Shown here piece by piece: positions 5,605-60,927 of a DNA stretch of 64,000 nt. How positions within the stretch are numbered: position 1 is the first letter of the stretch; every line of letters begins with the position of its first letter. Made by a program: the position numbers and the translations under genes. The stretch spans positions 38,070,001 through 38,134,000 of the forward strand of contig CM059432.1 of the NCBI GenBank assembly GCA_030390025.1, read 5' to 3'. Below the pieces are notes generated by a model, which was not told where the DNA came from, made no database searches, and was given only the letters and a program-made list of their open reading frames with translations. This DNA comes from Squalus acanthias (taxonomy: Eukaryota).

Positions 5605-5856
5605 ATGACTACCTTGAAGAAGTCCTGCTCTTCTCTTCGACGGGATTTCCGTTTGGCTCGTCAACCTTGTTCATCTTCATTGCTTTCAGTTTCCCTTCTC
5701 ATGTTTGATCAGGTATCTGCCAAGACTCGGTTTCACAGCCACATTACTTTCCTCAGCAACTGTCTCCGGTTCCAACTTATCCCACGTGGATTCCAATTAA
5801 ACTTCCACCCTTCGTGTTTCGTTTCAACCCAGGATTACAAATATCTCCAAGATATT
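5605..5856 (+). pseudogene. N-terminal coding fragment of next tandem PLE copy
   Basis: MTTLKK...HITFLSNCLRFQLIPRGFQL resembles the PLE N-terminal FL..C...IP.G motif; cut at 5856. Confidence 0.7.
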
Positions 5857-14937: not shown

Positions 14938-15390
14938 TTATTTGCATCCAAGTCCTCTCACAGCAAAGGCCATACAGTCTCTGAAGACATTCAATGCAAC
15001 AGCAGCAGAGGCGACTTTCAGACCTAATACTACCTTCATCACATCTCTGTTGTAATAGTGGACCTGCAGCTGATAGTCAGCTATCCACTTGTGCTCCCGC
15101 CAGGTTTCACTGGAGTGTTTCACATCAGGCGTACTTCACGTCAGAAAAGGGTTAAACTAGCTAAAACATTTCAAAATGGCATTACAGAGCCAATTTAGGG
15201 CTTGTTAAGGGCTTTAATGGCCTCTCCCACCTCTTGGAGGCGGGATGGAGTCGGGAACCCCGCGACTGATTTTGTCAAAATTGCGTGGAGGCGAGATGAA
15301 GTCGGGATGGGGTCGGGATCCCCGACCCCGCAAATTTAACCCCCTCCACGCCTCCAAACCCGACTCCATGGGTCATTCAAAATCAAGCCC
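14629..15390. mobile_element. Harbinger-type MITE inserted in the RTE 3' end
   Basis: TIRs GGGCTGGATTTT...AAAATCAAGCCC; same family as 38567-39191. Confidence 0.8.
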
Positions 15391-17015: not shown

Positions 17016-17303
17016 TGGACACACTCACTAGAAGGAGACGCCGCGGGACACACTCACTAGAAGGAGACGCCGCGGGACACACTCACTGGAAGGCGATTCC
17101 GCGGGACACTCTCACTGGAAGGAGATTCCGCGGGACACACTCACTGGAAGGAGACACCGTGGGACACACTCACTGGAAGGAGACACCGCGGGACACACTC
17201 ACTGGAAGGAGACGCCGCGGGACACTCTCACTGGAAGGAGATTCCGCGGGACACTCTCACTGGAAGGAGATTCCGCGGAACACTCTCACTGGAAGGAGAC
17301 ACA
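17016..17303. repeat. 29-bp minisatellite, ~10 units
   Basis: Unit GGGACACACTCACTGGAAGGAGACGCCGC. Confidence 0.95.
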
Positions 17304-17309
17304 GTATAA

Positions 17310-18202
17310 GAGGTCGGGACCCAGGAGCGAGGTGGGGACTCAGGAGTGAGGACGGGACCCAGGAACGAGGACGGGACTCAGGAGCGAGGACGAGGCCCAG
17401 GGGCGAGGACGGAGCCCAGGAGCGAGGACGGGACCCAGGAGCGAGGACGAGGCTCAGGGGCGAGGACGGGGCCCAGGGGCGAGGACGGAGCCCAGGAGCG
17501 AGGACGGGACCCAGGGGCGAGGACGGGGCCCAGGAGCGAGGACGGGACCCAGGGGCGAGGACGGGGCCCAGGAGCGAGGACGGGGCCCAGGGGCGAGGAC
17601 GGGACCCAGGGGCGAGGACGTGACCCAGGAGTGAGGACGGGGCCCAGGAGCGAGGACGAGGCTCAGGGGCGACGATGGGGCCCAGGGGCAAGGACGGGAC
17701 CCAGGAGCGAGGACGAGGCTCAGGGGCGAGGACGGGGCCCAGGGGCGAGGACGGGACCCAGGAGCAAGGACGAGGCTCAGGGGCGAGGACGGGGCCCAGG
17801 GGTGAGGACGGGACCCAGGAGCGAGGACGGGGCCCAGGGGCGAGGACGGGGCCCAGGAGCGAGGTCGGGGCCCAGGGGCGAGGACGGGGCCCAGGAGCGA
17901 GGACGAGGCTCAGGGGTGAGGACGGGGCCCAGGGGCGAGGACGGGGCCCAGGAGTGAGGTCGGGGCCCAGGGGCGAGGATGGGGCCCAGGGGCGAGGACG
18001 GGACCCAGGAGCGAGGACGAGGCTCAGGGGCGAGGACGGGGCCCAGGGGCGAGGACGGGACCCAGGAGCGAGGACGAGGCCCAGGAGCGAGGTCGAGGCC
18101 CAGGAGCGAGGACGGGGCCCAGGGGCGAGGACGGGGCCCAGGAGCGAGGTCGAGGCCCAGGAGCGAGGTCAGGGCCCAGGAGCGAGGTCCGGACCCAGGA
18201 GC
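17310..18202. repeat. 19-bp G-rich minisatellite, ~47 units
   Basis: Unit AGGACGGGGCCCAGGGGCG and variants. Confidence 0.95.
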
Positions 18203-18872
18203 GATGTGATAATGTAGATAGAGAGGGATGGATGGAGGTGCAAGGTAAGTTGGTGTGAGTAAAGATGTGCAGGAGTAGGGTAGGGAAGGCAGAGTGATGG
18301 TGATGTGATGAGAGTCACAGAAGGATGAGGTTGAGTGTGGCTTTGCAGTAACATTTCATGATCTAATGAGATCATTGAAAGGTTTGCGCCACTGCACCCA
18401 GGTCCTCCTGACGACATCCCTGCTTGTGTCCTCCTGTGCAATGTGCAACCAGGCTGTGTTGGTCTCCTGGGGAGGTCTCTTCCGCCCATGGGAAGGGAAG
18501 AGGACCTCCCTGCGTGCTGTGACTCCCTCCATAAGCATATGGAGGGAGTCATGGAGAACCTGGGTGCAGCCCTGCACCTCTGTGCAGTGATTGTCAATGT
18601 TTGCAGCACTTCAATGCTGTAGAACACTGACAGCACAAATGTTAAAAGAAAGTTGGCCATGGTTCCTTTAAGGAAACCGGCTGCTGACGCGTCATGAATG
18701 ATGTCACCAGTCCCACTTCCTCTAATTGAACCGGGAAACGTGCTGGGCGGAATTAACAAACCCTATCAACGGAAATTCAATTTCCAGAGCAGGATGGAAC
18801 CAGCAGCGGTGCCGCGACTCGCCACCGACCCCGGCCTGCACTGGACCCGCTGAGGTGAGGATAATCTTGGCC

Positions 18873-24298: not shown

Positions 24299-24849
24299 AT
24301 TATCCGGTTATTATTACATTGCTATTTGTGGGACCTTGCTGTGTGCAAATAGGCTGCTGTGTTATCTACATTACAACAATGATTACATTTCAAAATGTGC
24401 TTAATTGGATGTAAAGTGCTTTGGGACATCCTGAGGTCATGAAATGTGTTATATAAATGCAAGTCTTTATTTCATCCTAAAGGTAGTACCTGCTGAGATC
24501 TGTGAATGCCTCTTACTGATTAGTTGCAAATAGATTAACTATAGCTGGGCTAATTTTGACCAAATTAATAAAAAAAATCCCTTGTTTATTTTCCTCACTT
24601 TGTTTCTTCCTGAATAGACTGTAGTCTGATAGGAGTGTGGAAATATAGCAGTTCAGCTTGCGTAGAGCAATGTGCGGCATATTCTTGGAGGAACAATGGT
24701 TGGTTTTTAGTAGCAGAAATAAAGTTGATCAGCTGTAGAATGTATCCATTACTGTACCCCATCTGAGTGCTCTAAACAATCGAATCGTTGTTTCAGTATC
24801 CCAGTAGTATGCTCTACAATAATTCAGATGGTGACATGGGCCTCATTTT

Positions 24850-26430
24850 ATCGTTGTCTCAGTGTCTGCATGGTCTCGCCGATGTACCATGCTCCGGTGC
24901 ATCCTTTCCTGCAATGTATGAGGTAGACAACGTTGGCCGAGTCACATGAGTATGTACCATGTACCTGGTGGGTAGTGTCCTCACGTGTGATGATGGTATC
25001 TGTGTCCATGATCTGGCATGTCTTGCAGAGGTTGCCGTGGCAAGGTTGTGTGGTGTCGTGGTCGCTGTTATCCTGAAAGCTGGGTAATTTGCTGCGAACT
25101 ATGGTACTTTTGAGGTTAGGCGGCTGTTTGAAGGCGAGTAGTGGAGGCGTGGGGATGGCCTTAGCGAGGTGTTCGTCGTCATCGATGACATGTTGAAGGC
25201 TGCGAAGAACATGGCGTAGTTTCTCCGCTCCGGGGAAGTACTGGACGACGTAGGGTACCCTGTTGGTTGTGTCCCGTGTTCGCCTTCTGAGGAGGTCTAT
25301 GCGATTTTTCGCAGTGGCCCGTCGGAACTGTCGATCGACGAGTCGAGCGTCATATCCCGTTCTTACGAGGGCGTCTTTCAGCGTCCGTAGGTGTCCATCG
25401 CGTTCCTCCTCGTCTGAGCAGATCCTGTGTATTCGCAGGGCTTGTCCATAGGGGATGGCTTCTTTAACGTGGTTAGGGTGGAAGCTGGAGAAGTGGAGCA
25501 TCGTGAGGTTGTCCGTGGGCTTGCGGTAGAGTGAAGTGCTGAGGTGTCCAGGAATGAAACCGATTCAGAGGAGTAGTCCATGGTGAGTTTGATGGTGGGA
25601 TGGAACTTGTTGATGTTATCGTGTAGTCTTTTCAGTGATCCTTCGCCGTGGGTCCAAAGGAAGAAAATGTCGTCGATGTATCTGGTGTACAGCGTTGGCT
25701 GGAGGTCCTGTGCAGCGAAGAAGTCTTGCTCGAACTTGTGCATGAAGATGTTGACGTATTGGGGTGCGAATTTGGTCCCCATGGCTGTTCCGTGTGTTTG
25801 GGTAAAAAACTGGTTGTCGAAGGTGAAGACATTGTGGTCAAGGATGAAGCGGATGAGTTGTAGGATGGCGTCTGGAGATTGGCTGTTGTTGGTGTTGAGT
25901 ACTGAGGCTGTCACAGCGATGCCGTCATCGTGGGGGATACTGGTGTAGAGTGCCGATACGTCCATCGTGGCGAGGAGTGTTCCTGGTTCAACTGGTCCAT
26001 GGGTGCTGAGTTTCTGTAAGAAGTCTGTGGTGTCGCGGCAGAAGCTGGGGGTTCCCTGTACGATGGGTTTCAGGATGCCCTCGACGTATCCAGAGAGGTT
26101 CTCACACAGGGTTCCGTTGCCTGATACGATATGACGTCCGGGTGTGTTGGCTTTGTGTATCTTTGGGAGGCAGTAGAAGTCTCCCACGCGGGGAGTACGT
26201 GGGATGAGAGCGCGTAGGATGCTTTGAAGGTCTGGATCGAAGGTCTTGATCAGTCTATTGAGTTGGCGGGTGTGTTCTTTGGTCGGATCTGCGGGTAACT
26301 GTCTGTAGTGTTCCAGGTTGTCCAGTTGTCGGTATGCTTCTTTGCAATAGTCCATTCTGTTCTGTATGACGATGGCTCCTCCTTTGTCCGCTGGTTTGAT
26401 GACGATGTTGCGGTTGGTCTTGAGAGCGTG
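24850..26430 (-). mobile_element. Second-family PLE fragment (RT + partial GIY-YIG), frameshifted
   Basis: IKPADKGG, LPKIHK, MDVSALYT, GTAMGT, YIDD; VYLIHC...WYIGET. Confidence 0.9.
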
Positions 26431-26432
26431 AT

Positions 26433-26620
26433 GAAAGAGTGGTGGAAGCAGATTGAATAGTAACTTTCAAAAGGGAATTGGATCTCTACTTAAAAAGGAA
26501 AAATTTGCAGAGCTATGGGGAAAGAGCAGGAGAGTGCGACTAATTGGCAGCTTTTTCAGAGTCGGCACAGGCACGATGGGCTAAATGACCTGCTTCTGTG
26601 CTGTCTGATTGTATGATGAT
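26433..26620 (+). mobile_element. CR1 3' end fragment
   Basis: Homologous to 1-195. Confidence 0.75.
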
Positions 26621-30996: not shown

Positions 30997-32175
30997 TCTC
31001 AATGGCAGAAGCCATTTCCTCAGCAGGGGCCTAGAAGCGGCTTGCTATCAGCCGTTGACGGACGGCCCTTGCAGTTTCAACATTGTGGGCCACCCTCCCG
31101 CCTTGGTGCTACCGATGATCATCCTCCTCCTCCTCTTCCTCCTCCTCCCCTGGTGGTGCTCCAAGGCCTGGTGGCATTGGCTGGGTCCTGAGGATTGCCA
31201 TGTTATGCAGCATGAAGCACACAACTACGAAGTGGGAAACTTGCTCAGGCGAGTACTGCAGGGCTCCTCCAGAATGGTCCAGACAGCGGAACCATTGCTT
31301 GAGCACGCCGATTGTGTGCTCAACGATGTTCCTGGTAGCTTGATGGCTCTCGTTGTACCGCAGCTCAGCAGGGGTGTACGGAGCGGTGTCATCAGCCAGG
31401 TGCTCAGTGGATATCCCTTGTCCCCGAGAAGCCAACCAACTGGCTGATGTGGTGCCTCGAAAAGTTCTGCCACTGTAGTCTGGCGCAGGATGAATGCATC
31501 GTGGCAGCCGCCAGGATAGTGGGCATTGACAGCGAGTATCAGCTGTCTGTGGTCACAGACCAACTGAACGTTCAAGGAATGGAACCCCTTTCTGTTCCGG
31601 AAATCCTCGGCATTCTCATGCGGAGCACGCAAAGCCACATGCGTGCAGTCAATGGCGCCCTGCACCATGGGGAAGCCCGCTATCCTCGCAAAGCCCATAG
31701 CGCGTTCATGCTGCTTGTCTGGGGTCATGGGGAAAGAGATGTACTCTCGTCTCCTTTTAAAGAGGGCATTTGTGACCTGACGGATGCAGCAATGCACCGC
31801 GAACTGGGAGATATTGGCGATGTCCCCAGTAGCAGATTGAAATGAGCCAGTGGCATAAAAGTTCAGAGCCACTGTGATCTTCACTGCCACCGACAGAGAC
31901 GTCCTGGACCTCAGTTGAGGCTGCAGATCTGGCTGCAGCAGGTGGCAGAGCTCAGTGACCACCTCATTGCTGAAGCGCAGCCTTCGCAAACACTGCTCCT
32001 CAGACATATGAATGTAGGAGAGCTGTTGACGATATACCCTGGGAGGGTAAGGTCTCCTGTACAGAGGCCTGTTGGCCCTCCTTCATCTGGCCATGATTGC
32101 CACTCTCTCTCTGCGTCTCTGTGTCCTCCGATTCTGGTGGTGCAGGACGACGCCCCCAATCAGTGCAGCCCCCAT
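30997..32175 (-). pseudogene. Harbinger (HARBI1-like) DDE transposase, frameshifted
   Basis: GFPMVQGAIDCTHV, NRKGFHSLNVQLVCD, YPGGCHDAFIL, LLGDKGYPL, RNIVEHTIGVLK. Confidence 0.9.
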
Positions 32176-33647: not shown

Positions 33648-34863
33648 ATGGGGGCTGTACTGGCACTGGACCTCGCCCTCCAGCATCAACGCCGGAGGCA
33701 GTGGAAGCAGAGAGAAAGATTGCAAAATGTGGCCAGAGGGAGGAGGGCCAACAGGGCTCTCAACAGGAGGCCTTACCTTCCCAGGGTATTCCAGTAGCAT
33801 TTCTCCTACATCAATCTCACTGAGGAGCAGTGTCTTAGAAGGCTCCGCTTCACCAAGGACGTGGTCACAGAGCTCTGCCACCTCCTGCAGCCAGACCTTG
33901 AGCCTCACATCAGGAGCACCACGTCTCTCTCAGTGGCAGTCAAGGTCACCATCGCCCTCAATTTCTACGCCAGCAGATCCTACAGGAGACATATCTAACA
34001 TATCGTAGTTCGCCGTCCATTACTGCATCCGCGAGGTCACAGATGCTCTCTACAGAAAGAGAAGGGACTACATTTCCTTCCCCATGGCCACAGAGAAGCA
34101 GCACAAGCTTGCATGTGGCTTTGCCAGGATAGTGGGCTTCCCCATGGTGCAGGGCGCCATTGACTGCACCCACGTCACTTTGCGGGCACCTCATAATAAT
34201 CCTGAGGTATTCCGTAACCACAAAGGCTACCACTCACTTAATGTGCAGTTGGTGTGCGACCACACACAGCGCATCCTCACCGTCAATGCCCGCTATCATG
34301 GCAGCAGCCACGATGCCTTCATCCAGCGCCAGACCGGTGTGCCAGCTCTGTTCCAGCCACCACATCAAGCTAGTAGATGGCTGCTGGGAGACAAGGGCTA
34401 TCCGCTCTCCACCTGGCTCATGACTCCCCTCCGCAACCCCAACACTCCTGCCCAGCACTCATATAATGAGAGCCATGCTGCCACCAGGAACATCATCGAG
34501 CAGACAATCGGAGTGCTCAAGCAACGGTTCCATTGCCTTGACCGTTCGGGAGGAGCCCTCCAGTACTTGGCTGAGCAGGTGTCCCTTTTCATCATCATCT
34601 GCTGCATGCTGCACAACTTGGCCATCATGAGGGCACAGCCATTGCCACCATGCATAGCCGCACCACCTCAGGAGGAGAAAGAGGGGGAGGAGGAGAAGGA
34701 GGAGGTGGACGAGGACGAGGAGGAGAAGGAGGAGGAGGAAGAGGAGGACGAGGAGGAGGAGGAGGAACAGGAGCACCAACAGCTGCGACAGAGGAGGCAG
34801 CCACTCCATCGGCCTTGTGGAAGGGCGGCCCATGACTGCCTGATCAGACTGCGGTTCCAATGA
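33648..34863 (+). pseudogene. Harbinger transposase with Glu-rich tail, disrupted near 33975-34010
   Basis: GAIDCTHV, HDAFI, LLGDKGYPL, IEQTIGVLKQRF, CCMLHNLAI. Confidence 0.9.
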
Positions 34864-42364: not shown

Positions 42365-43101
42365 GACACAGAACAGGACAAGCTGCTAGAAGAGGCCGGA
42401 GGAGGAGGGGGAGCAGGGCTCTCAGCAGGAGAGTCAATGCCTTGTCCTTGAGCACATATCCACCAAGGCTCTTCAGGGAGCAATTCTCCTACCTCAATCT
42501 CGGTGACGAACAGTGCATGCAACATCTCCGTTTTACTAAGGAGGTGCTCACTGAAATCTGCAACCTACTGCAGGCAGACCTGCAGCCTCAGTTCAGGGTG
42601 AGGATGGCTTTGCCAGTGGTTGTAAAGGTGACCATGGCCTTGAACTTCTTTGTGTTGGGCTCCTTCCAGACTGGAGCAGGCGACATCTGTAGCATCTCCC
42701 AATTCGCCATCCACTCCTGTATAAGGGAGGTGAGTGAGGCTCTGTATGCAAAGAGAACTGAGTACTTTTCATCCTCTCTTGCCAGAGAGAAGCAGGCAGA
42801 GCGAGCACGCAGCTTCGCCAGGATAGCAGGCTTCCCCATGGTGCAGGGTGCCATTGACTGCACGTACATCGCTTTGCGGGCGCCGCATCTCAATTCGGAG
42901 ATGTACTGCAACCAGAAGGGATTCCATTCCCTCCATGTCCAGCTGGTGTGCGACTATATTCAGTACATCAGGCAGGTCAATTCTCGGTATCCTGGCAGCA
43001 GTCATGATGCCTTCATTCTGCAGGCAGTCCACTGTACCATCAGCATTTGAGCCACCACGACAAACCAGAGGGTGGCTACTGGGTGATGAGGGCTATCTGC
43101 T

Positions 43102-47066: not shown

Positions 47067-50000
47067 CTTCTTCTTAGGCAGTCCCTCGGAACCGAGGATG
47101 ACTTGCTTCCACACTAAAAATGAGTTCTCAGGTGACTGATGAGTCCAATGTGGGACCTACAGTCTCTGTCACAGGTGGGGCAGACGGTGGTTGAAGGGGC
47201 GGGTGGGTGGGGTGCTTGAGTTGATGTGTGCTCCTTCCGCTGTTTGCGCTTGGCTTCCGCTTGCTCCTGGCAAAGAGACTCGAGGTGTTCAGCACCTTCC
47301 CAGATGCTTCTCCTCCACTTTGTGCAGTCTTGGGCCAGGGATTCCCAGGTGTCGGTGGGGATGTTGCACTTTTTCAAGGAGGCTTTGAGGGTGTCCTTGA
47401 AGCGTTTCCTTTGCCCACCTGGGGCTCTCTTGCCATGTCGGAGCTCCGAGTAGAGTGCTTGTTTTGGGAGTCTCGTATCGGGCATGCGGACGATGTGACC
47501 CGTCCTTCAGAGCTGATCGAGCGTGGTCAGAGCTTCGATGCTGGGGATGTTGGCCTGAGCGAGAACACTGACGTTGGTGAGCCTATCCTGCCAATGGATT
47601 TGCAGGATCTTGCGGAGGCAACGTTGGTGGTACCTCTCCAGTGCTTTGAGGTGCCTGCTGCACATGGTCCATGTCTCTGAAGCATACAGGAGGGCGGGTA
47701 GCACTACTGCTCTGTAGACCATGAGCTTGGTGCTGGGTTTGAGGTCCTGGTCTTCAAACACTCTCTTCCTCAGGCGACCGAAGGCTGCACTGGCACACTG
47801 AAGGCGATGTTGGACTTCGTCATCGACGTCTGCCCTTGTTGACAGTAGGCTCCCGAGGCATGGAAAGTGATTCACGTTGTCCAAGGCCTCGTCGTGGATT
47901 TTGATAATCGGGGGGCAGTACTGTGTGGCGGGGGCAGGTTGGTAGAGGACCTTTGTCTTATAGATGTTTAGTGTAAGGCCAATGCTCTCGTATGCTTCGG
48001 TGAAGATGTTAACGATCGTTTGGAGTTTGGCCTCAGAGTATGCGCAGACGCATGCGTCGTCTACATACTGTAATTCGATGACAGAGGAAGGGACGACCTT
48101 GGATCTGGACTGGAAGCAACGGAGGTTGAACAGTTTCCCGTTTGTTCTGTAGATTAGCTGCACACCAGCGGGGAGCTTACTGAGGGTGAGATGGAGCATT
48201 GCAGCCAGGAAGATCGAGAAGAGCGTTGGTGTGATGACACAGCCTTGCTTGACCCCAGTCCGTACGTGAATTGGGTCTGTGGTGGATCCGTTGGTCAGGA
48301 TCACGGCTTGCATGTCGTCGTGAAGCAGGCAGAGGATGGTGACAAACTTTTGAGGGCAGCTGAATTTGAGGAGGACATTTCATAATCCCTCACGGTTGAT
48401 GGTGTCGGAGGCCTTTGTGAGGTCAAAGAAGGCCATGTACAGCGGTTGGTGCTGTTCCCTGCATTTCTCTTGCAGTTGACACGCGGTGAAGATCATGTCC
48501 ATTGTGCCCCTTAGTGTGCGGAATCCGCATTGCGACTCTGGGAGGAGCTCTTCAGCCACTGGGAGAAGGCGATTGAGGAGGATTCTTTCGATGACTTTCC
48601 CTGTGGCAGACAGCAGGGAGACTCCTCTGTAATTACCGCAATCAGACTTGGTCACCTTTCTTGAAGATGATCACGATTACGGCGTCTCTGAGATCCCCTG
48701 GCATGCTCTCCTCCTTCCAAATAAGATAAATGAGTTCATGTATTCACGCCAAGGACGCTCGTATCACCCTCGCCATGACAGGAGCTGACGACTGCTGAAC
48801 AGGCCACCGCCTAATCCTGTTCTGTCATCACCATCAATGTAGCCCCAAAACAGCAGCGGCAACAGAAGCAATGCCGCAGGAAAATCAACGCTGGAGCACT
48901 CAAAGACCCCACTAAGAAAGCCCTATTCAGCCTGCACCTCACAACCAACCTGACGACTCCCAGTGATTCAGAGACACAGAGTGTCCACAGCGCCTGGTCT
49001 GCACTCAAGGCCTCCATAATCAGCACCTGTGAAGAGACGCTCGGACACTCGACTACAAAACACCAAGACTGGTTCGACGAGAACGACCAGGAAATCCAGG
49101 AGCTAATAAGCTGCAAGCTCAAGGTATACCTGATCTGGAAACAGCAACAGAACTCGAGAGCAAGAAAGCAGCTCTACAGACGCCTGAAGGCCAAGGTCCA
49201 AAAAAAAACTCGCGACCTAAAGAACAGATGGTGGGTGGAGAAAGCGCAGGAGATCCAGCAGCTCGCCGACAACCACGACCATGCATGGATTCTTTAGCGC
49301 AGTCAAGACCACCTACGGCCCAAGCACCCAAGGTCCTACCCCACTGCGGGCCAAGAACGGAGAGGCAGTCAGTGCCTGCTGGAAGGAGCACTTCGAAGAT
49401 TTCCTTAACCGAGACTCTGTCTTCGACGCGAATGTCCTCAACTCCATCCCGCAGCATGCTACCCGCCACCACCTCAGCACAACCCCAGCCCAGCATGAGG
49501 TTGAAAAGGCCATCTGACAACTGAAGAACAACAAGGCCTCAGGAGCAGATGGAATCCCCGCCGAGGCGGCTAAAACATGGTGGAGAATGTAAAGTTTCGC
49601 AATTATCGCGATTCAAAATAACATAAGAGAAGCAGATTCGTTTGATCAGTTTTATTAAACGAAATGCTGTCCTGATAATAAAGGACACAGAAGCCTGTAA
49701 AATGGCCGCCTGCGCATCGTGGCAGAAGCTTCCAGAAACACAGTGGGCAGACAAAATGGCGTCGAATATACATTCAGTATAAGATTGGATCATACTCGGT
49801 AAACACTGATAAAGGCAGGATGCAACCCGTTTGCATTTGGAACAATAGCAAAGATATAAGTGCTGGAATCGTTTTCCTATGCACAGTAAGGATCATTGTA
49901 CTGGGCAATCGAAGGCCCATCCAGACACATCAATACACAAATACCCCCCCGGCTCTACAATGAGAGAGACATTGACGGGTGATTAAGCCAGTATTCGGGG

Positions 50001-51255
50001 GGCCCCAAAACCAGTCGAGGAGACGATTCATACAATCCTGGCTGGCTCAACAATGGAGAAAACATTAACGGATAGTTGGCCAGTTTCAGGTGCTACCGAA
50101 ACCCGTTAAAGAAGATAATCGCCCCATGCTGGGAGTTTTGAGCGCCAAATATTACACAAAGGATAAACATTAAGATTTGAGCGGAAGATAAGCGGACACA
50201 TCACTATAACTATAGAGAACAAATGTCCATCGCTCTCTTGATTCGACTCTTATCCTCTGGTATCGCTCTCCTGGACGGGCAGCCTCTTGATTTTCTCTCT
50301 GGACTTTGTTGACTCTTGACTCTTAGCCGTACTGGTCGGTTATTCGAGTGTTGGGTGGAGCTCAATCGGTACGAGCCGCCCCGACAAGGGCAAGTAACAG
50401 GGTACACCATCCCGAGTGTCGGTAAACGGTGTCTGGACCCGGAGGCCCGAGGAGACGAGACGAGAAGAAAACGAGAAGAAATTCCACGTGCCGCCACGGT
50501 CAGTAAACCCCGACCGCGCCCGAAAATATAAATACAGGACTTTTCTTTGAGTTCTACCGACTACAACCTGTGTCGAGCACAGGAAGACTCTTCTTTGAAC
50601 TGTGTCCGAGGTCCGTTGAGTTCTTCATGACAACAGGGAGTCTGGCCTGCTTTTCGCAGCAGCGAAAGTAAACAAGTGGGGCCAGAGACCCTTCCAAACA
50701 CGTGACAGTCAGGCGCTGCTGCGAAACGAGCTGAGTGCCTCACTTTAAAAATCTCCGAAGTAACACGAGTGGTGAGCATGTTTTCTGATCCTACAAATCC
50801 AGACGTAGTGTAGGTATTGTTAAGGGAGGGTGGTTTTAATAAGGTTAAGATATAATGTGTTCCCCTTTCTACGATGTGCCGTGTGTTCTCCATTTCCATA
50901 GACCAAGCTTTATGAATGTATGTATACTTGTACTATCTTTGATTTGCGCCTATGACATGTATTTCATGATTTTAGATGCCATGCAATAAAGATTTCCATT
51001 TTGTACTATTCAACCGGGTCTATTTGAGTTTTTCTCTGCATTACTGCTCCCTGCACCTAAGTCCAGTGTTAGAACCGTAAGGGCGAGTGGGTCGAACCAC
51101 TCACAGGTGCTTATTGCAAAAAGGGCTGGCCGGAGACCAGAGCAAGCAATAGTATAGGCAACAAAGGCCTAACCTCGCACCAGCACCGTCTGAGCACCGT
51201 TTGAAACCCCTTACAAGAAGCACTATTGACACGAATACATGAACTCATTTCTCTT
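47067..51255 (-). mobile_element. RTE LINE with 5' inversion, 11-bp TSD
   Basis: (AAG)n tail; RT segment 47067-48752 on minus; upstream APE/linker segment 48753-49587 and 51220-51255 on plus; TSD ACTTCAAAAGT at 47056-47066 and 51256-51266. Confidence 0.88.
49588..51215 (+). mobile_element. Solo LTR (1628 bp) related to element 2 LTR
   Basis: TGTA...CCCTTACA ends, AGAA TSD, collinear homology with 51422-53034. Confidence 0.92.
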
Positions 51256-51421
51256 ACTTCAAAAGTACTTAATTAATTGTTAATTGCTTTCTAATGTCTT
51301 GAGGTCATGAAAGGCGCTATGTAAAGGCAAGTTCTTTCTTTCAATGGCAGAGCCTTTAGCCACCTCAGTCCTACACTTTGGAACTTCCACCTTAAACTTC
51401 ATTTCCTTGGTGCTTCTCTCC

Positions 51422-53034
51422 TGTAGAATTCGCAATTATCGCGATTTCATTTTTATAAGGAGAAAACACAAAGTTTCGTTCAAAACAGCTTTTATTTCAG
51501 CGAAATGCTGTCAGGTTTAAATTGGACACAAGCAGCCTGTAAAATGGCCGCCGCACCGCGTGACAGAACATTCTAGACTTTTCAGCAGGCAGACAAGATG
51601 ACGTTCCAATAAACATTCTTGCAAGATCGATAACGATTCAGCACAGTGAAGACAATACACAGGACATTATGGGTTTACAGTATAAACATCGATACTGGAA
51701 TCGGTCTCCCAGGTACAAAGGAAAGCCATCAAGGGCCCATCCAAAGGACATTAATATGTAAACTCCCAACGGCTCTACGATGAGAGAGCCGTTAGCAGGT
51801 AGTTATACAGGACACTTGGAAGCCCCAAACCCCTCCAGGGGGAACGCCGACCGATTTAACAATGGGAGAGATATTAACAGGTACTCAAACATTCAGGAGT
51901 AGCCCCGAAACCCATTAAGGACAGAGATCACCCATACAGGACTTTTTGGGCGCCAAACCTTAAACAAAAGAATGGACATTGTAGTTGGGCGGGAAACGGA
52001 AGAACTGTGCACTATAATTGCAGGCCCCAAACCGTCCATTCGCTCTCTTGATTCTTGCTCTGGCCTCTTGCTCTTGCTCTTGCCTCGTGTTCTTGACTCT
52101 TGCCGCTTGTTGCTGTTATCATCGTGGCTGCTCCTGTGTAAAAGACTGTTGCAAAGACCTATGTTGGTAGCTGGCAGCGGAACCGAAGGCCCGGGATGAG
52201 ATGAGATGAGATGAGATGAGAGGAGAAGAGAAGAAGACCTTATCCATCGCCACGGTCAGTAGATCCCGACCGCGCCTGTAGGTCGATCAGCCAAGTCTTC
52301 TCGACAGGAAGTTTTCTTCTTTAACAAGACATATTGCATCAATGATAACTGGACTGTGTAAACACATCGTATCAGTGATATTGACAACGGTGCTCCACGA
52401 TTAAACTTTGAAGCCCACCAACAGAGGTCTTCACTACAGCGGACGGTCCAGCCGACTGACCGAGCAGCAGAAGCAGTAAACAAGTGAGACCAGGAGATCT
52501 CCTGACCAACACGTGGGTGCTGCGGTGAAAAACATCCGATCAGCTATTCGGGATTTCTCCGAGTTATTACGAGTGGTGAGCATGAGTCTCGGGATCCTAC
52601 GAAGCTAGTTTAGGATAGACATTGATAGGGGAGGGTTTTAAAGATTAAGGATATTTGTAATGTGTGCCCTATTTACGTTGTGCTGGTCGTTCCTCGTTTC
52701 CCTAAGAGTGATTATAACTGTTTGTAAGATTGTACTGTCATTAATCTGTGCATATGACATGTATTTCATAATTTTAAGTATCATGCAATAAAGATTTTCC
52801 ATTTCGTACCGTTCAAACCAAGTCTACATGAGTTTTACCTCCATTACTGCTCTCGCATCTAAGTCCAGTGTCTAGAACCGTAAGGGAGAGTGATTCGAAC
52901 CACTCACAGGGGTGTCTAGTGTTCCCAGACTGGCTGGAGACCAGGCCTAGACCCGCACTGACATACAGGCTGCACAGAGCCGCGTGAATCTCACAGGCTA
53001 CGAGACACGCAGGGTCAGGAGAGTATCCCTTACA
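51422..53034 (+). repeat. 5' LTR of element 2
   Basis: TG..CA; no difference from the 3' LTR seen by eye; TATA-like ~52013; AATAAA 52787. Confidence 0.97.
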
Positions 53035-53038
53035 GAAA

Positions 53039-54850
53039 ATGGCGACCGCGGCAGGACACTGGCAGCGAGAGGGTAGTGTGTTAGATTTTGGAATGACTGT
53101 ACGAAATGTGATGCAGGAAAAGATAGCGGATTATGTGTTTGGAAAGGTTAATCTAACGAAAAAGTGGATAAGCGAATTGTTAGCGGATAAGAGCCCACTA
53201 GAGGCAGCTGAAAGGTGGACGGATAGTAAGGAGCATAAAAAGGCAGTTGAGAAAGCAGTCTGGCTTATGTGCTACAAAAGGCAGGTTCAGATTTCAAACC
53301 AGACCAATACAGCGCTAACCGCTCGAATCAAGCATCTAGAGGAGGAAATGGAGGAGAAGGTTTCTGGAGGGGAGGCGCTCATTAAGAGTTTAAATGAGTT
53401 ACGCCAGGAAAGCCAGGAAGTCTCCAGTTACCTTAAAACAAGGGTAGAGTATCTCGAGTGCCAGATCACTGAAGCAAAATTAAACGAGAGTAGGATGAAG
53501 GAAAGATGTAACCGTCAAGCTGCCCAGATAAGAACTCAAGAAGAGAGCTTAATGGGGGTTAGGTCGGCGTATAAGTTGGCCCTTGAGGATAAGTTTCAGG
53601 GAGCCGACCATAGCGCCTGCGAAAAAGAGATAGAGAGCCTCAAAAGGGCCGTGAATAATGCGAACGGCATGGTGTGCCTTATTAATCCGTCGGCACGCCA
53701 GCCGCTAGTAAATGAGAGATTTAGAAATTCCCCACCAAGTAAAGCAGAAGAAGTAGTAGCCAGTGCGCCCTCCGCACCACCCAGCTATTCAGAAACCTGG
53801 GTTAGGGAGGAAGCAACGGAAGAAGCAAAAGAGCCCGTTGAAAAGGAGGTAGAAAAGGGATCGTTGTATCCAGTAACGGGTATTAAAAGGGGCCCAAGCA
53901 GAAACGGTGGGGAAGAACCGGGGGATCTCCTCGGACAGCTGGTGTTGCCTCACAGTTCACATCAGCTGAGGGCCATGATAAACCACGTAAGGAAGCTGAC
54001 CGAGATAGACGACCCTTCCGTACATTTTAGGGAAGTTGAGCAAGCCGCAGCCATCAACGGCTGCGATGATGGGGAGACAGCAAAAATGCTGCTGTTCTCG
54101 TTAGATAGCTCGGTCCTTCAGTGTCTCTCAGGCGATAGCAAGAGGGGTAATAAAAGTTATGAGGAATTGAAAAATGAGGTCCTAGAAGTAGTGGGAGCGA
54201 ACGACGGAGGTCCGTTTGCTAGAGTGGGACAGACAGTGCAGATGGAGGGAGAACCCCCGAAGGTTTTTGCCGACAGGCTGTGGCCAGTATATGAGCGCAG
54301 CTGTCTAGGTGCGCCCGAGCGCGAAGATGTGGAAGGCGCCGCTTTAATTCATTGGCTTAGGTGCATAATAGCCAACAGTTTACCAGCCGTTAGAGAGCAG
54401 GCAAAAGCCTGGTTCGATCCCAATGACCTCAACCTTACGGAAGAGTCGGTCTTGAATCGACTCACGTTAGGTTACCGTAACATAAGGGGTATGGCAACAC
54501 GTCCCTTTAAGGGGAGAGTACATGAGGTACGACCCGCAGCCCCGGCTCAGAGAGAGTGGCATCAGGAGGGTAATCGCGCCCCACAGGCAAGTAATGCCTG
54601 TTACGGGTGTGGGAAGACAGGGCACTGGCGCAAGCACTGCAGGAACCCTTGGAAGGATTCCAAGGATAAAAATCCCGCGGTCCGAACCCAGGCGCCTGTC
54701 CCGGCTAAGGAAGCAAAGGCACCCACCTCTCCCGAAGACCTCGAAGCAGTGTTAGGAGTCATGCGCAAGATGGTTTTGAATGCGCGTGGACAGGTGGCGG
54801 TCGCAACCGGCCCCGTAGGTGCCGCAGGACCGTCTAATAGTACCCCATGA
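53039..54850 (+). CDS. gag: Gag (603 aa): coiled coil, PSAPPSY late domain, capsid-like region, CCHC zinc knuckle
   Basis: CYGCGKTGHWRKHC knuckle; position directly after the PBS. Confidence 0.9.
   Translation: MATAAGHWQREGSVLDFGMTVRNVMQEKIADYVFGKVNLTKKWISELLADKSPLEAAERWTDSKEHKKAVEKAVWLMCYKRQVQISNQTNTALTARIKHLEEEMEEKVSGGEALIKSLNELRQESQEVSSYLKTRVEYLECQITEAKLNESRMKERCNRQAAQIRTQEESLMGVRSAYKLALEDKFQGADHSACEKEIESLKRAVNNANGMVCLINPSARQPLVNERFRNSPPSKAEEVVASAPSAPPSYSETWVREEATEEAKEPVEKEVEKGSLYPVTGIKRGPSRNGGEEPGDLLGQLVLPHSSHQLRAMINHVRKLTEIDDPSVHFREVEQAAAINGCDDGETAKMLLFSLDSSVLQCLSGDSKRGNKSYEELKNEVLEVVGANDGGPFARVGQTVQMEGEPPKVFADRLWPVYERSCLGAPEREDVEGAALIHWLRCIIANSLPAVREQAKAWFDPNDLNLTEESVLNRLTLGYRNIRGMATRPFKGRVHEVRPAAPAQREWHQEGNRAPQASNACYGCGKTGHWRKHCRNPWKDSKDKNPAVRTQAPVPAKEAKAPTSPEDLEAVLGVMRKMVLNARGQVAVATGPVGAAGPSNSTP
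53040..53057 (+). promoter_or_regulatory. Primer-binding site, tRNA-Arg(UCG)
   Basis: TGGCGACCGCGGCAGGAC is complementary to the vertebrate tRNA-Arg-TCG 3' end GTCCTGCCGCGGTCGCCA. Confidence 0.88.
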
Positions 54851-56011
54851 CTAGAACCGGCGCAGCCTGCCTACCTGTGTCCTTTTAAAAGACACGCACA
54901 GGAGGGGGTCTGCGGTAAGGAGGCCAGGTTAAAAGAGCAGGCCTTGCGGGAGGAGAACGCCCGCTTAATAGGGAAAATAGATGGGCTGGAAGGGCAGCTT
55001 AGAGAGCAGGCCCTGCGGGAGGAGAATGCCCGAGCAATGGGAAAGTTAGACGTGCTCAGGCTAGAAGGGCAGCTTAGAGAGATAAAAGCAGCCTACAGGG
55101 TAGCCAAAAGCAGGGAGTATGAGTATTTAAAACAGGATAGAAATCTGCAGCCTCCAGCAGGTGAGATTTCACAGAAACAAGCAGGGGCGGTGGCCTGTCT
55201 TAAGGGAGGGGCCAGACCTGCGAATGGGAAAACACAGCCCCAGGTAGGACCACAAGGCACACAGGCAGGCGTAGCAGCTTGCATCAGGGGAAGGGACATC
55301 CCGGACGATCATGCAGCGTTTTTCTGGAGTTGGGGGTTAGATGACGAAGAACCCAGGGTACCCTGGTCAGATGAGGATAGTGCAGATGAGCATAGTGATG
55401 ATGACGGGTGGTTTCAGAGGAACGGTCTGGAAGGATTGGGGCCGCTAGGTAGAGATCCATACGGGGTGGACACACAAGCTGCAGGTCCCGACAGCAGGAG
55501 GAAGGAGCTAGAGGAGGCCGGGCCAGCCGCTATGTGGTTCCCAGAGGTGTGGCCGCCCGCTTTGAACGTCCAGTCCTCAGGGGAGGCAGAGTTCGCGAGT
55601 GAAGGGCCGCCTGCTGGGCCGAGCAGGGCGGGGCCCCGAACTGCCAGCCCCGAGGTTAGGGAGGCGGAGTCAGCGGAGGCGGGGCTGGCGCCTGTGATGG
55701 AACCCCAGGTCATCCCATTGAAGGTCTCGGGACCCGGTCCGTCCGTCACGGAGCCCCCGCCCATAGCAATTCCCCGTAGGTCAAGCAGAGTACCCCAGCC
55801 CAGGAAGATGTGGTCAGGTCCACAGGCTGCCCCAGGGCGTAAGTTTCAGGTTAAGATAACCCGGGTAGAGACAGGCCACATCGAAGCAGTAACAGGCTGC
55901 GGCAGATCAGAGGAAAGGGTCAGCGCAGCAACAGGCTGCGGCAGATCAGAGGGAAGGGTCAGTGCCCTCCCACCGTCGGGAAGAGCTCGCAGCAGCCTTC
56001 TCAGGATTTAA
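54851..56011 (+). CDS. ORF X (386 codons), in frame with gag after UGA; coiled-coil and low-complexity, non-Pol
   Basis: No stop between 54851 and 56009; UGA-CUAG context; no enzymatic motifs seen. Confidence 0.7.
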   Translation, partial: LEPAQPAYLCPFKRHAQEGVCGKEARLKEQALREENARLIGKIDGLEGQLREQALREENARAMGKLDVLRLEGQLREIKAAYRVAKSREYEYLKQDRNLQPPAGEISQKQAGAVACLKGGARPANGKTQPQVGPQGTQAGVAACIRGRDIPDDHAAFFWSWGLDDEEPRVPWSDEDSADEHSDDDGWFQRNGLEGLGPLGRDPYGVDTQAAGPDSRRKELEEAGPAAMWFPEVWPPALNVQSSGEAEFASEGPPAGPSRAGPRTASPEVREAESAEAGLAPVMEPQVIPLKVSGPGPSVTEPPPIAIPRRSSRVPQPRKMWSGPQAAPGRKFQVKITRVETGHIEAVTGCGRSEERVSAATGCGRSEGRVSALPPSGRARSSLLRI

Positions 56012-56295
56012 AGGGGCCGCCCTGAGAACGGGCGGCATTGTAAAGTCATTAGTTTAAGGTTTTAAGTTTTAGTTTAAAGTTTTAAGTAGTTTTAATAAGG
56101 TTAAGTTTGTAGTGTTTTTAACAGATAACGATAAAATGATGGGAGTTTTAAGGCTAGGTTTAGAGGAAGTCTATTTAGCAAACGTTGAAGTTTACGTGAG
56201 GCGAGGTCAGGGGACCCGCTCACCCTTCACAAAAGCCAGAGACTTTTTGCGAGGCTGGCTACCTCATTCTATCTGATCACAGGAACCAAGGAAGG

Positions 56296-58647
56296 ATGGA
56301 ACGACTCATAGTATTGCTCGCGGCAATCGGATGTGGATTGGCCTATCGGGGCCTCACCAAGGATGTCGTGGTGTTTGGATGTTCCGGGGACACGGCCCCC
56401 ATCGCGGTGGATGGGACCGGGAGACGGAAGGCAGAAGGGACCAGCACCTATTTCCACAAGGGAAGGTGGCCAGGATGGCTGGGAACGAACTCAACGGAGT
56501 ATTCCAGCACATCGGGGTTCGCCTACAAAGAGACTTCTTTAATGTGCCCCAAAGTACGGATCATCGCACCCAGGATCAGCGTCACCGTCGGCAAACGGAT
56601 TTGTTTGACCTGCAGTGGGAATGTCCCATTGAGCCGATGGTGGTGGCTGCGAAAGCTGAGCAAAACTATGAGGAACTCTTCGGTTGAGTGGGAGCGACTG
56701 GGTAATAATACCCATCGGACAATTACGGGGACAGATGGACAAGTGAAAGTCTGTTGGGACAAATGGTGGGAACCGGATGAGGGGATTTATGTTTGTATGT
56801 GGGGGTCAAAGTACGTTTGCCCCAAAGGCATCTCCATATTCTTTATTAACCAGTGGCAGGATAACGGACAGGGGATGAGGTGGGATGCGAGCACCAGGGG
56901 GTGCGGAGCCCCATACTCTCCGATCCCAGTAAATGCCACTGAGCTCATTACGCGCCCACGCAAAGCCCCGCCCACGATTCCGGTAGTTCTAACTGAGGAA
57001 GAAGGGTGCCCTAAAACTAGTAAGGGACCCGGGAACGGTTTGGTACTGGTCCTCACAGACCAGATACTATTTCAGGGAGTGCATTACGCGGTGGCCTCGG
57101 TGATTTTAAATCTCACTGAGGTACGGTTACCAGAGTGGTGCCCCAAAAAGACGGAACAGTTGTACCAGGTCCTGTTGACCAAGATGTTCAGGCAATTTTA
57201 CGAGTTTGATTTTGCAGAAATTGATAAGACAAGTTTATATACCGCACCGCAGGAAGTTTTGGATCAGGTGGGGAGACAAAGAAGGGGTTTGGTGAACGAT
57301 GCGTTCACTGCTTTTAACACAGGGACATCTGTGGTCAACGCTCTAGACAGTGTGGAGCTGCAGACCCAGATTAATGGTTTAAAAACACAGTTAAAGGATA
57401 TTCTTACAGATGAGAATAAAGTGGTAGGGTCGGGTCTGCACGAGGACCAAGCCATGACACTACACTTAAAGGAAATCATAGCAGAGCTGGAGAAACATGC
57501 GCGTACGGTAAATGCCCTGATTCGGGAAGATCGGAATGCATCCGATCAAGCTGCGCAGAACGAGGTGTGCGTGCTTTACGGGGCGTGGTTACTGGGCGAG
57601 GGCCGCAGTAATTTGGAGGATTTAAAACAAGGTTTGGTTCCGTCCTGGATAAGTAACAAACACCTGCGGGCGCTCCACCCTTTTCAGAACGCATTAAGTC
57701 CGTGCCAGCTCAGGCTAGCTTCAGAAGCTTACCCAGTCCCCGTGGACTGCGGACGTTCAAACCATACTATTATGGGAATAGTATTACGCATGCCGGTTTT
57801 GGGCAACACAGCAAAGCCCGCCCCGGTATATCGGGTAGAGAACATTGGTGTCATTCAGGGGGGAGCCCACATTCGTTATGCAGCGGTTCCACCTTACGTC
57901 ATCCGCTGGGAGCAAACGATGACAGGTACAGATCTCTCTGGTTGTCGTGGCAGGGGAGCACACATAATACTGTGCCCCCAGCACTTGAATGCCTTTTTAA
58001 CACCACAGTGCGGGTTCAGAACGGCTGGCGCCAAGTCCATGAATTGCACCATGGAGGCAATGGCACAAGATCATGTGCCTCCGCAGGTAGCATACATCGG
58101 GGGTGGAACATATTGTGTTACCACTGCAGCGCAACACTACCAGCATGGAAACCGTAGCCGGTGTCCGGTGAGTGACAGCAGTTTCTGTTTTAAACCCAGG
58201 GCTGAAGTTCAAGTAGCACAACAGCGAATTATCCCAATCCCTGAACCATCCACTGTTCATCTCACAGTAAAAGAGAATTTTACCGACTTGCAGCGATTTG
58301 TCGCACATTTTGGGTACCTCATTCCCCCTCTCCCTGAGCATTTAACCAAACTTCTGAAAGCCGTCGCGGTGTCACAAAAGCATTTCTATACATTAGAACA
58401 GAAAACCGTCGAGATAGGTACAGACATTTTGGACATAGTGGTTCCACCATGGTGGAATCTGTTCACGAATATTGAAGTGCCCTCATGGGTCAGAATAGCC
58501 TCCCACATTTTAGTCGTCTGTCAAGTGTTTATTGTAGTATACCTAATGTTCATACATTGTAAAAGAGACAAACGCCTCACCAAGCATGAGAACACGGGAG
58601 AGTGGCGAGAACGTTACGTGCGCGTGCACGACGAGAGCGCAGTGTAA
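56296..58647 (+). CDS. env: Envelope glycoprotein (783 aa): signal peptide, Ig-like domain, RQRR cleavage, long Cys-rich fusion subunit, TM anchor
   Basis: Splice acceptor ~56282; RQRR|GLVNDAF at 57274-57285; TM ~58495-58555; N-glycosylation sequons. Confidence 0.92.
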   Translation: MERLIVLLAAIGCGLAYRGLTKDVVVFGCSGDTAPIAVDGTGRRKAEGTSTYFHKGRWPGWLGTNSTEYSSTSGFAYKETSLMCPKVRIIAPRISVTVGKRICLTCSGNVPLSRWWWLRKLSKTMRNSSVEWERLGNNTHRTITGTDGQVKVCWDKWWEPDEGIYVCMWGSKYVCPKGISIFFINQWQDNGQGMRWDASTRGCGAPYSPIPVNATELITRPRKAPPTIPVVLTEEEGCPKTSKGPGNGLVLVLTDQILFQGVHYAVASVILNLTEVRLPEWCPKKTEQLYQVLLTKMFRQFYEFDFAEIDKTSLYTAPQEVLDQVGRQRRGLVNDAFTAFNTGTSVVNALDSVELQTQINGLKTQLKDILTDENKVVGSGLHEDQAMTLHLKEIIAELEKHARTVNALIREDRNASDQAAQNEVCVLYGAWLLGEGRSNLEDLKQGLVPSWISNKHLRALHPFQNALSPCQLRLASEAYPVPVDCGRSNHTIMGIVLRMPVLGNTAKPAPVYRVENIGVIQGGAHIRYAAVPPYVIRWEQTMTGTDLSGCRGRGAHIILCPQHLNAFLTPQCGFRTAGAKSMNCTMEAMAQDHVPPQVAYIGGGTYCVTTAAQHYQHGNRSRCPVSDSSFCFKPRAEVQVAQQRIIPIPEPSTVHLTVKENFTDLQRFVAHFGYLIPPLPEHLTKLLKAVAVSQKHFYTLEQKTVEIGTDILDIVVPPWWNLFTNIEVPSWVRIASHILVVCQVFIVVYLMFIHCKRDKRLTKHENTGEWRERYVRVHDESAV

Positions 58648-59061
58648 TGGGAAAATGGCGTCACTCCCGCTCGCCACGTGCGCCGCGGAAGTTTGTACTC
58701 ATTGTAAATACGTTGGAAACTCGACATGTTTAAGAGTTGGGATTTGTTTATTTTGGTGATGGCGTTGAATTGTTTGGTTTTGGGTTTTGTTTTTTCCTTC
58801 CCCTGAATAAAAGACAAATATACAGGTGATGCGTGAGGTATCGGCCTGGTTACGCCGGGAAGGAAAACAAGTGGTGTAAGTTTAAGGGCAAATGATGCCT
58901 ATGGTGATATAAAATGTGATTTTCTTGGGAAATGAGGACGACACAGAGACCCTAGCGAAGTTAAAATTTATGGGATTAATTTACTGGATTCGGAGTGAAA
59001 TCGAGATAAGATTGCTCACCACTGAGATTTTTTTGATACGATAAGCGGAGTTATTCGCATC

Positions 59062-59073
59062 AACAGGAGGGAC
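59062..59073 (+). promoter_or_regulatory. Polypurine tract of element 2
   Basis: AACAGGAGGGAC directly before the 3' LTR. Confidence 0.8.
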
Positions 59074-60686
59074 TGTAGAATTCGCAATTATCGCGATTTC
59101 ATTTTTATAAGGAGAAAACACAAAGTTTCGTTCAAAACAGCTTTTATTTCAGCGAAATGCTGTCAGGTTTAAATTGGACACAAGCAGCCTGTAAAATGGC
59201 CGCCGCACCGCGTGACAGAACATTCTAGACTTTTCAGCAGGCAGACAAGATGACGTTCCAATAAACATTCTTGCAAGATCGATAACGATTCAGCACAGTG
59301 AAGACAATACACAGGACATTATGGGTTTACAGTATAAACATCGATACTGGAATCGGTCTCCCAGGTACAAAGGAAAGCCATCAAGGGCCCATCCAAAGGA
59401 CATTAATATGTAAACTCCCAACGGCTCTACGATGAGAGAGCCGTTAGCAGGTAGTTATACAGGACACTTGGAAGCCCCAAACCCCTCCAGGGGGAACGCC
59501 GACCGATTTAACAATGGGAGAGATATTAACAGGTACTCAAACATTCAGGAGTAGCCCCGAAACCCATTAAGGACAGAGATCACCCATACAGGACTTTTTG
59601 GGCGCCAAACCTTAAACAAAAGAATGGACATTGTAGTTGGGCGGGAAACGGAAGAACTGTGCACTATAATTGCAGGCCCCAAACCGTCCATTCGCTCTCT
59701 TGATTCTTGCTCTGGCCTCTTGCTCTTGCTCTTGCCTCGTGTTCTTGACTCTTGCCGCTTGTTGCTGTTATCATCGTGGCTGCTCCTGTGTAAAAGACTG
59801 TTGCAAAGACCTATGTTGGTAGCTGGCAGCGGAACCGAAGGCCCGGGATGAGATGAGATGAGATGAGATGAGAGGAGAAGAGAAGAAGACCTTATCCATC
59901 GCCACGGTCAGTAGATCCCGACCGCGCCTGTAGGTCGATCAGCCAAGTCTTCTCGACAGGAAGTTTTCTTCTTTAACAAGACATATTGCATCAATGATAA
60001 CTGGACTGTGTAAACACATCGTATCAGTGATATTGACAACGGTGCTCCACGATTAAACTTTGAAGCCCACCAACAGAGGTCTTCACTACAGCGGACGGTC
60101 CAGCCGACTGACCGAGCAGCAGAAGCAGTAAACAAGTGAGACCAGGAGATCTCCTGACCAACACGTGGGTGCTGCGGTGAAAAACATCCGATCAGCTATT
60201 CGGGATTTCTCCGAGTTATTACGAGTGGTGAGCATGAGTCTCGGGATCCTACGAAGCTAGTTTAGGATAGACATTGATAGGGGAGGGTTTTAAAGATTAA
60301 GGATATTTGTAATGTGTGCCCTATTTACGTTGTGCTGGTCGTTCCTCGTTTCCCTAAGAGTGATTATAACTGTTTGTAAGATTGTACTGTCATTAATCTG
60401 TGCATATGACATGTATTTCATAATTTTAAGTATCATGCAATAAAGATTTTCCATTTCGTACCGTTCAAACCAAGTCTACATGAGTTTTACCTCCATTACT
60501 GCTCTCGCATCTAAGTCCAGTGTCTAGAACCGTAAGGGAGAGTGATTCGAACCACTCACAGGGGTGTCTAGTGTTCCCAGACTGGCTGGAGACCAGGCCT
60601 AGACCCGCACTGACATACAGGCTGCACAGAGCCGCGTGAATCTCACAGGCTACGAGACACGCAGGGTCAGGAGAGTATCCCTTACA
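59074..60686 (+). repeat. 3' LTR of element 2
   Basis: Direct repeat of 51422-53034 followed by CTCC. Confidence 0.97.
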
Positions 60687-60927
60687 CTCCCTACTTTTCA
60701 CCATGTCTTCAACCATCTGTCCTAATTCTTTTCTGAATGCTTAGTACCTTGGAACATTTTATTACATTAAAGGTAGTAGAAAAATGCAAGTGTTTGAGTT
60801 ATGTTGTGGATTTTTCACCCCCTATCATTAATTGTTTATGATTAACTGAAAGGTGGTACATTACCCCTTGTTGCATTTGGCCATTGGCTGGTGTTCTGTC
60901 CTGTACCTAACCAAATATAGCAAGTTA

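Follow-up and report, generated by a model that had tools for sequence, protein, structure and literature searches.

A pol-less gag-X-env provirus in Squalus acanthias and the abundant pol-bearing siblings that probably mobilise it

We analysed a 64,000-nt stretch of the Squalus acanthias genome (GenBank assembly GCA_030390025.1, contig CM059432.1, positions 38,070,001 to 38,134,000 of the forward strand), here called the window. It contains, at 51422-60686, an endogenous retrovirus (ERV) that has gag and env and an open reading frame (ORF), ORF X, in the position of pol. The two long terminal repeats (LTRs) are letter-for-letter identical. The features of the element are:

51418..51421, + strand: target-site duplication CTCC, 5' copy
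51422..53034, + strand: 5' LTR, 1613 bp, TG...CA, with AATAAA at 52787
53040..53057, + strand: primer-binding site (PBS) for tRNA-Arg(TCG), 18 nt, 5-nt spacer from the LTR, overlapping the first gag codons
53039..54850, + strand: gag, 603 aa, from the ATG at the PBS, uninterrupted
54848..54854, + strand: TGA-CTAG stop context between gag and X
54851..56011, + strand: ORF X, 386 codons, uninterrupted, in the gag frame
56296..58647, + strand: env, 783 aa, uninterrupted
59062..59073, + strand: short polypurine-tract-like run
59074..60686, + strand: 3' LTR, identical to the 5' LTR
60687..60690, + strand: target-site duplication CTCC, 3' copy

Fifteen genomic bases of the PBS equal the reverse complement of the 3' ends of host tRNA-Arg(TCG) genes (predicted with ARAGORN), and the remaining three pair with CCA. 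The gag product comprises an N-terminal coiled coil, a conserved central region (capsid by position) and one CCHC knuckle; its closest relative is a skate protein (51%). The first Met of ORF X is codon 62, and the frame lacks a start codon near its 5' end. Protease, reverse transcriptase (RT), RNase H and integrase gave no Pfam match in gag, X or env at E<=1, in a search that detected all four in the pol of a sister family, B. The element thus has the make-up of a trans-complemented ERV morph: LTRs, PBS, polypurine tract and target duplication are intact and the enzymes are absent. An earlier sequence-only reading of the window had described these features and the three uninterrupted frames, and the exact LTR comparison and the profile search bear it out. 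The first gag ATG lies in the PBS overlap (53039-53057), so that the tRNA complement encodes N-terminal residues of Gag, as it does in family B; the Gags of the skate and of record P0005 likewise begin with MAT.

The element is one of many. In the 3.7-Gb genome searched, the gag-X-env junction region gave 40 scored matches, every one of them full-length at 98-100% identity, and a 35-mer from the start of X occurred exactly at 889 sites (control, 0). Our sample of this form, the first 20 X sites on contig C1, is ~77-98% identical to the window element. Both LTR ends could be resolved in 17 copies, within which the LTR pairs are 97-100% identical; 14 of these 17 are flanked by perfect 4-bp duplications, all different, two duplications look 3 bp long and one is mismatched. 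X is open in 17/20 copies, gag and env in 15/20 each, and all three frames in 10/20. In addition, contigs that span the left junction exist in four public runs with the codes of four organisms (5-8 differences per 140-464 nt). An assembly artefact that lost pol, or a single deletion scar acquired after insertion, is refuted by the 889 exact junction matches and by the four independent runs, and we give it practically no chance. The young, multi-copy, pol-less form with independent insertions that the sequence-only reading proposed is therefore real.

Another conceivable origin is that a single deleted provirus was multiplied at the DNA level, through segmental duplication or gene conversion, which would require no Pol in trans. 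Some copies are arranged in tandem ~7.7 kb apart, apparently with a shared LTR, and many lie on small unplaced contigs, as this explanation would have it. The distinct flanks largely refute it: 14 different perfect target duplications among 17 resolved copies are hard to reconcile with copying at the DNA level, and LTR pairs agree at 97-100% within copies that diverge by up to ~23% from the window element. We regard it as very improbable. Tandem proviruses of this form were seen at G000:C1:143.66-143.67 Mb, C2:133.59-133.60 Mb and C6:35.14-35.15 Mb, with the spacing expected for neighbours that share one LTR. Another X copy, L136, has LTRs identical over the part read and a 754-bp insertion inside the cassette.

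Alignment with the pol of related proviruses (see below) resolves ORF X into four parts:

54851..54882, + strand: first 32 nt (11 codons) of pol
54883..55132, + strand: insert with homology to the family B Gag coiled coil, right edge approximate
55133..55216, + strand: pol-tail unit from a B-like lineage (81% identity with locus L098 across 75 nt), left edge approximate
55217..56011, + strand: last 264 codons of the pol of a pol-bearing sibling, 99% identical to the nearest one sampled

A 334-nt insert (54883-55216) replaces 3676 nt of pol with the frame kept, so that 275 of the 386 X codons are the two ends of pol; the last part corresponds to the low-complexity tail behind the SH3-like region of integrase. 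X residues 47-91 are ~46% identical to the family B Gag coiled coil (z 6.8; 1/300 shuffles), and the insert contains an internal duplication (54921-55006 versus 54991-55081, 77%). The B-like pol-tail unit, which makes up the last ~28 insert codons, is found in the window copy and in 8/20 sampled X copies; the others rejoin pol ~56 nt earlier. A comparison of X with 8000 candidates of 212-676 aa yielded no homologue at E<=0.001, atlas look-alikes of X 12-95 all scored <0.9, and the similarity between X and its own Gag is not significant (z 2.9). Nor did the source family of the coil insert appear among the 150 best matches, all of which are X-type frames. As judged from these alignments, ORF X is a patchwork of residual retroviral sequence and not a new gene. 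The idea of a new ORF in the pol position consequently falls; X has pol homology, none of it to the catalytic domains, and so shows in part what the sequence-only reading had named as a refuting outcome.

The pol-bearing siblings are abundant. A 31-mer from the gag end occurs at 1856 sites genome-wide, and on C1 X follows 30 of 94 such sites. The first 20 gag-end sites on C1 without X, our helper sample, all carry pol behind an identical TGA-CTAG; pol is a single open frame of 1494-1511 codons in 19, and all five scanned motifs are present in 17 of these 19. A 31-mer from the pol start behind the same junction was found at 1911 sites, i.e. ~two per X copy. Helpers are ~87-98% identical to the window element across the tail, env and 3' LTR; in the closest one sampled, divergence from the window copy amounts to 0.9% at the end of gag, 0.8% within the tail and 1.2% for env. 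Three of the four public runs that bridge the left X junction also contain helper-type loose ends. The same genome thus holds a competent partner that has the end of gag, the tail of pol, env and the 3' LTR in common with the X form, as the sequence-only reading had anticipated, and these siblings are the likely helper. The proposal by that reading of a helper-dependent element stands as far as the partner and the young pol-less copies are concerned; that Pol is supplied in trans is strongly suggested.

With ~1900 pol-start sites (L109-L128 sampled), a pol frame open in 19/20 and env open in 14/20, the family represents an unusually large young ERV burst. Near the 3' end of locus L130 (G000:C1:20953224), a pol-bearing junction lies within ~200 bp of the point where the 3' LTR of an X copy ends, which is too short for a whole gag between them. 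Family B, which is older, was considered as helper and rejected: its Gag is only ~41% identical, and no sampled B copy has a whole open pol frame. Family B also has a pol-deleted morph (L095-L098, L101, L103, L105-L107), five copies of which keep env; its frame of ~400 codons joins part of protease, the end of RNase H, scraps of integrase and the tail.

Trees of the shared genes place X copies and helpers among each other. On the env tree the X and helper labels change 11 times, 9 of them forced by strong branches, versus a mean of 12.9 for shuffled labels, and 88-108 of 500 shuffles are as low as observed. The tail tree has 9 changes, 8 of them forced, and some clustering remains (2-8 of 500 shuffles). 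The nearest env is a helper's for 10/16 X copies; at the gag end the signal is weaker, with a helper as nearest neighbour in 5/17. Moreover, 118 of 136 long X frames are shorter than a helper pol length class by exactly 1114 or 1125 codons. The interleaving on the env and tail trees argues that the cassette moves between helper backgrounds. Read in this way, the sequences point to a single cassette joined at its 3' side to many helper backgrounds, with template switching in shared particles as the most likely and simplest cause.

Selection differs sharply between the genes. Pairwise omega (dN/dS) among open X copies, with broken-frame copies excluded, is 0.27 (0.22-0.34) for gag and 0.08 (0.06-0.11) for env, indicating purifying selection, and 0.81 (0.63-1.02) for X as a whole and 0.66 (0.42-1.09) for the insert, close to neutrality; in helpers it is 0.13 for the pol core and 0.95 for the tail. 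Shared polymorphisms, scored in 63-68 of 72 copies, agree: the insert has 17 non-synonymous and 6 synonymous ones (74%, versus 73% expected if neutral) and the capsid 12 and 36 (25%). X residues are under no visible amino-acid constraint and evolve nearly neutrally. Because gag and env are exchanged with the helper, their purifying selection cannot be credited to the pol-less form alone. The low env omega suggests that the family spreads by reinfection.

The junction upstream of X has the form of a readthrough site. TGA-CTAG separates gag from the in-frame X and occupies the gag-pol junction of the helpers and of family B; it was found in 58/58 loci picked by motif or similarity, some of them duplicated, and in 18/20 C1 copies. 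A UGA-CUA(G) stop that separates two ORFs of the same frame corresponds to the type II readthrough context (PMC13517186; here as throughout, papers are cited from excerpts). Evidence for a conserved hairpin after the stop is weak: folding z of the 3' stem-loop is -1.08 for X, -2.05 for the helper and positive in three B copies, and homology of the arms is not significant (403/2000 shuffles).

Taken together, these results make it highly probable that the X form is a non-autonomous morph of a very active ERV family, supplied with Pol by its siblings and recombining with them. The 3.68-kb catalytic core of pol was swapped once, in frame, for a short insert from related retroviral sequence. X-form RNA would then be packaged with helper RNA in particles containing helper Gag-Pol; helper RT would copy it and, by switching templates, place the cassette on each new helper background, and helper integrase would insert the DNA. 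Renewal by recombination may be the main reason why Gag and Env remain intact. Ribosomes probably continue past UGA-CUAG into X a few percent of the time, and the Gag-X product is most likely a near-neutral by-product. The open X frame could be a legacy of its origin, or it could be retained because it benefits the RNA, for instance by averting nonsense-mediated decay: readthrough can shield RNA from this pathway (PMC5360307), which would explain a frame that is open and unconstrained.

Several points weigh against this reading. Complementation, co-packaging and readthrough are inferred from sequence. The samples are small, come from a single contig and were chosen by exact motifs, and the omega pairs have common ancestry, which makes the intervals too narrow. 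Gene conversion between integrated copies could account for part of the interleaving on the trees. Finally, the ~five junction variants of the insert counted by eye in sampled copies (presence or absence of the 75-nt repeat unit, forms shortened by 9 nt and by 6 nt, and an additional 33-nt sister-family unit) all keep the frame, which fits some selection on translation; the 75-nt skip also occurs in run X9.

The X reading frame may thus be under selection, and helper dependence could be the same with the Gag-X readthrough protein itself selected. A second Gag-type coil with a basic/acidic tail could co-assemble with Gag or tether its own RNA to the particle, giving an advantage in cis. Besides the in-frame variants, the constancy of TGA-CTAG favours this possibility, as does the finding that 136/150 best coil matches have frames of at least 368 codons. 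Family B offers a parallel, its env-bearing pol-deleted morph having frames of ~400 codons open in three sampled copies, and mouse IAP a precedent (PMC6466679). However, the insert lacks amino-acid constraint by omega and by shared changes; a 131-codon frame common to four of the 150 copies, on four contigs, suggests that the full product is dispensable; and homologous crossovers would preserve the frame unaided. Two further tests weigh neither way: an indel-count frame test swamped by alignment noise (multiples of three for 20/57 indels in X versus 10/49, 19/109 and 21/82 in non-coding controls) and a predicted complex of Gag 70-218 with X 12-95 (score 0.02). We consider a selected Gag-X protein unlikely. 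Somewhat less doubtful, and still speculative, is a satellite cassette: a long-lived selfish allele replacing pol that hops between helpers, possibly across several host species, goes on supplying Gag and Env to the common pool, and gains a cis advantage for its RNA from Gag-X readthrough, be it the protein or the act of translation. If this were true, the parallel in-frame morph of family B would represent a repeated evolutionary solution.

Helper-dependent mobilisation, our preferred explanation, has well-described counterparts. Defective morphs with a swapped central segment recombine with competent siblings in cattle ERVK[2-1-LTR] C/D, recKoRV/KoRV-A and ETn/MusD (PMC10924933). As in the cattle C/D pair, a central segment was exchanged for a piece of another retroelement, trans-complementation is assumed, and both flanks recombine. 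In contrast to that pair, the shark swap is in frame behind a readthrough-type stop, and whereas D-type cattle copies, as the excerpt describes them, lack intact ORFs, gag and env are each open in 15/20 shark copies and all three frames in 10/20. Mouse IAP 1-delta-1 is an in-frame fusion morph whose fusion protein has a reported cis function (PMC6466679). Like the X form, it is a non-autonomous internal-deletion morph with an in-frame Gag/Pol-derived ORF, mobilised by full siblings; it has lost part of gag and lacks env, whereas the X form has a whole gag and keeps env. Zebrafish BHIKHARI elements Bik-1 and Bik-2 are young pol-less relatives of lokiretroviruses (bioRxiv 2024.03.25.586437) and share with the X form a fish host, a coiled-coil Gag and the need for complementation. 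In the available text, Bik-1 is a single gag ORF with no partner identified and Bik-2 lacks pol and env; the shark form keeps env and its partner is abundant. Canid ERV-Fc also spread by complementation (PMC6407205).

Defective morphs of this kind are therefore already known; this one stands out in that its gag and env are whole and its readthrough frame is open, and also by its scale and host group. Our literature search returned no account of this family, which subscription papers, Repbase or bioRxiv supplements could hold, and the excerpts of PMC8672886, PMC10435555 and bioRxiv 2023.10.26.564294 contain no matching account. The family provides a large natural pair of competent and defective forms that is still spreading (~1900 and ~900 copies by junction count, many of which have identical LTRs). 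It makes two questions raised by cattle, koala and mouse elements testable in a genome: how defective and helper forms compete, and why gag and env are not stripped.

Env has a signal peptide, an RQRR furin-type site (57274-57285), a transmembrane helix and a predicted fold like paramyxovirus F. The best Foldseek match of the model among paramyxovirus/pneumovirus F structures is 1ztm (E 9.5e-12), at a mean pLDDT of 57.8 with most of the first 235 residues <50; Pfam PF00523 gave no match in env, and the env profile matches foamy-virus Env at 9e-5. The Env N-terminus (56533-56800, aa ~80-169) gives a weak immunoglobulin-like signal (Pfam Ig_3 E 0.43, JAM-A E 1), and single Env relatives match Ig_3 and V-set.

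The F-like fold led us to suspect a lokiretrovirus first. Lokiretroviruses likewise have an F-like Env with an RXKR-type site, and the helper lineage resembles them in its tether and RNase H (PMC7947760); both are present in family B pol, are common to other retroviruses and are not diagnostic. The assignment was dropped, as the helper RT falls inside retroviruses at 100/99 and grouping with two loki proxies was rejected (p-AU 0.005), the proxies being two sequences picked by their NSPAEF motif, with the published loki sequences outside the tree. Loki RTs carry NSPAEF (57 matches in the supplement of PMC7947760), where the helper RT carries LPQG; the excerpt of that paper does not report loki from cartilaginous fish. 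The family thus resembles loki in Env and is not loki by RT. An F-type fusogen and a non-loki RT in one family bear on how widely F-type Env is distributed among retroviruses.

The closest RTs are those of frog and coelacanth ERVs (~50-53%), and the helper RT belongs to an unresolved basal set with record L149 (45% RT identity), whose RT reads like the snakehead retrovirus (SnRV) row of the loki supplement (PMC7947760). As in the snakehead retrovirus clade 'Huo' (PMC12193657, PMC6001957), the family is basal among retroviruses and has an in-frame gag-stop-pol arrangement. SnRV-like L149, however, has a UAG junction in place of UGA-CUAG and no detectable gag or env similarity to the family, and the two form no resolved common clade. 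A scan of viral contigs with a single RT gave no match.

At 49588-51215 the window also contains an older solo LTR (TG...CA) from a related family, 69-80% identical over the matched pieces; it is separated by 206 bp from the provirus downstream and flanked by a separate 4-bp duplication, AGAA. At G000:C26:39.0-42.2 Mb, the genome has long tandem arrays (period ~1623 bp) that match the 3' end of the primer tRNA-Arg(TCG), which has 427 matches genome-wide; one array unit that was checked also contains tRNA-Ser(GCT). Elsewhere in the window, judging by eye from the ORFs, we take 2960-5158 and 24848-26466 to be Penelope-like RT/GIY-YIG pieces, including a 732-codon open frame, 5835-8668, 15373-16974 and 47507-48379 to be LINE fragments, and 31225-32082, 34009-34863 and 42367-43050 to be Harbinger-like nuclease pieces; 17017-18204 is, by eye, presumably a GC-rich minisatellite with a 19-bp unit.

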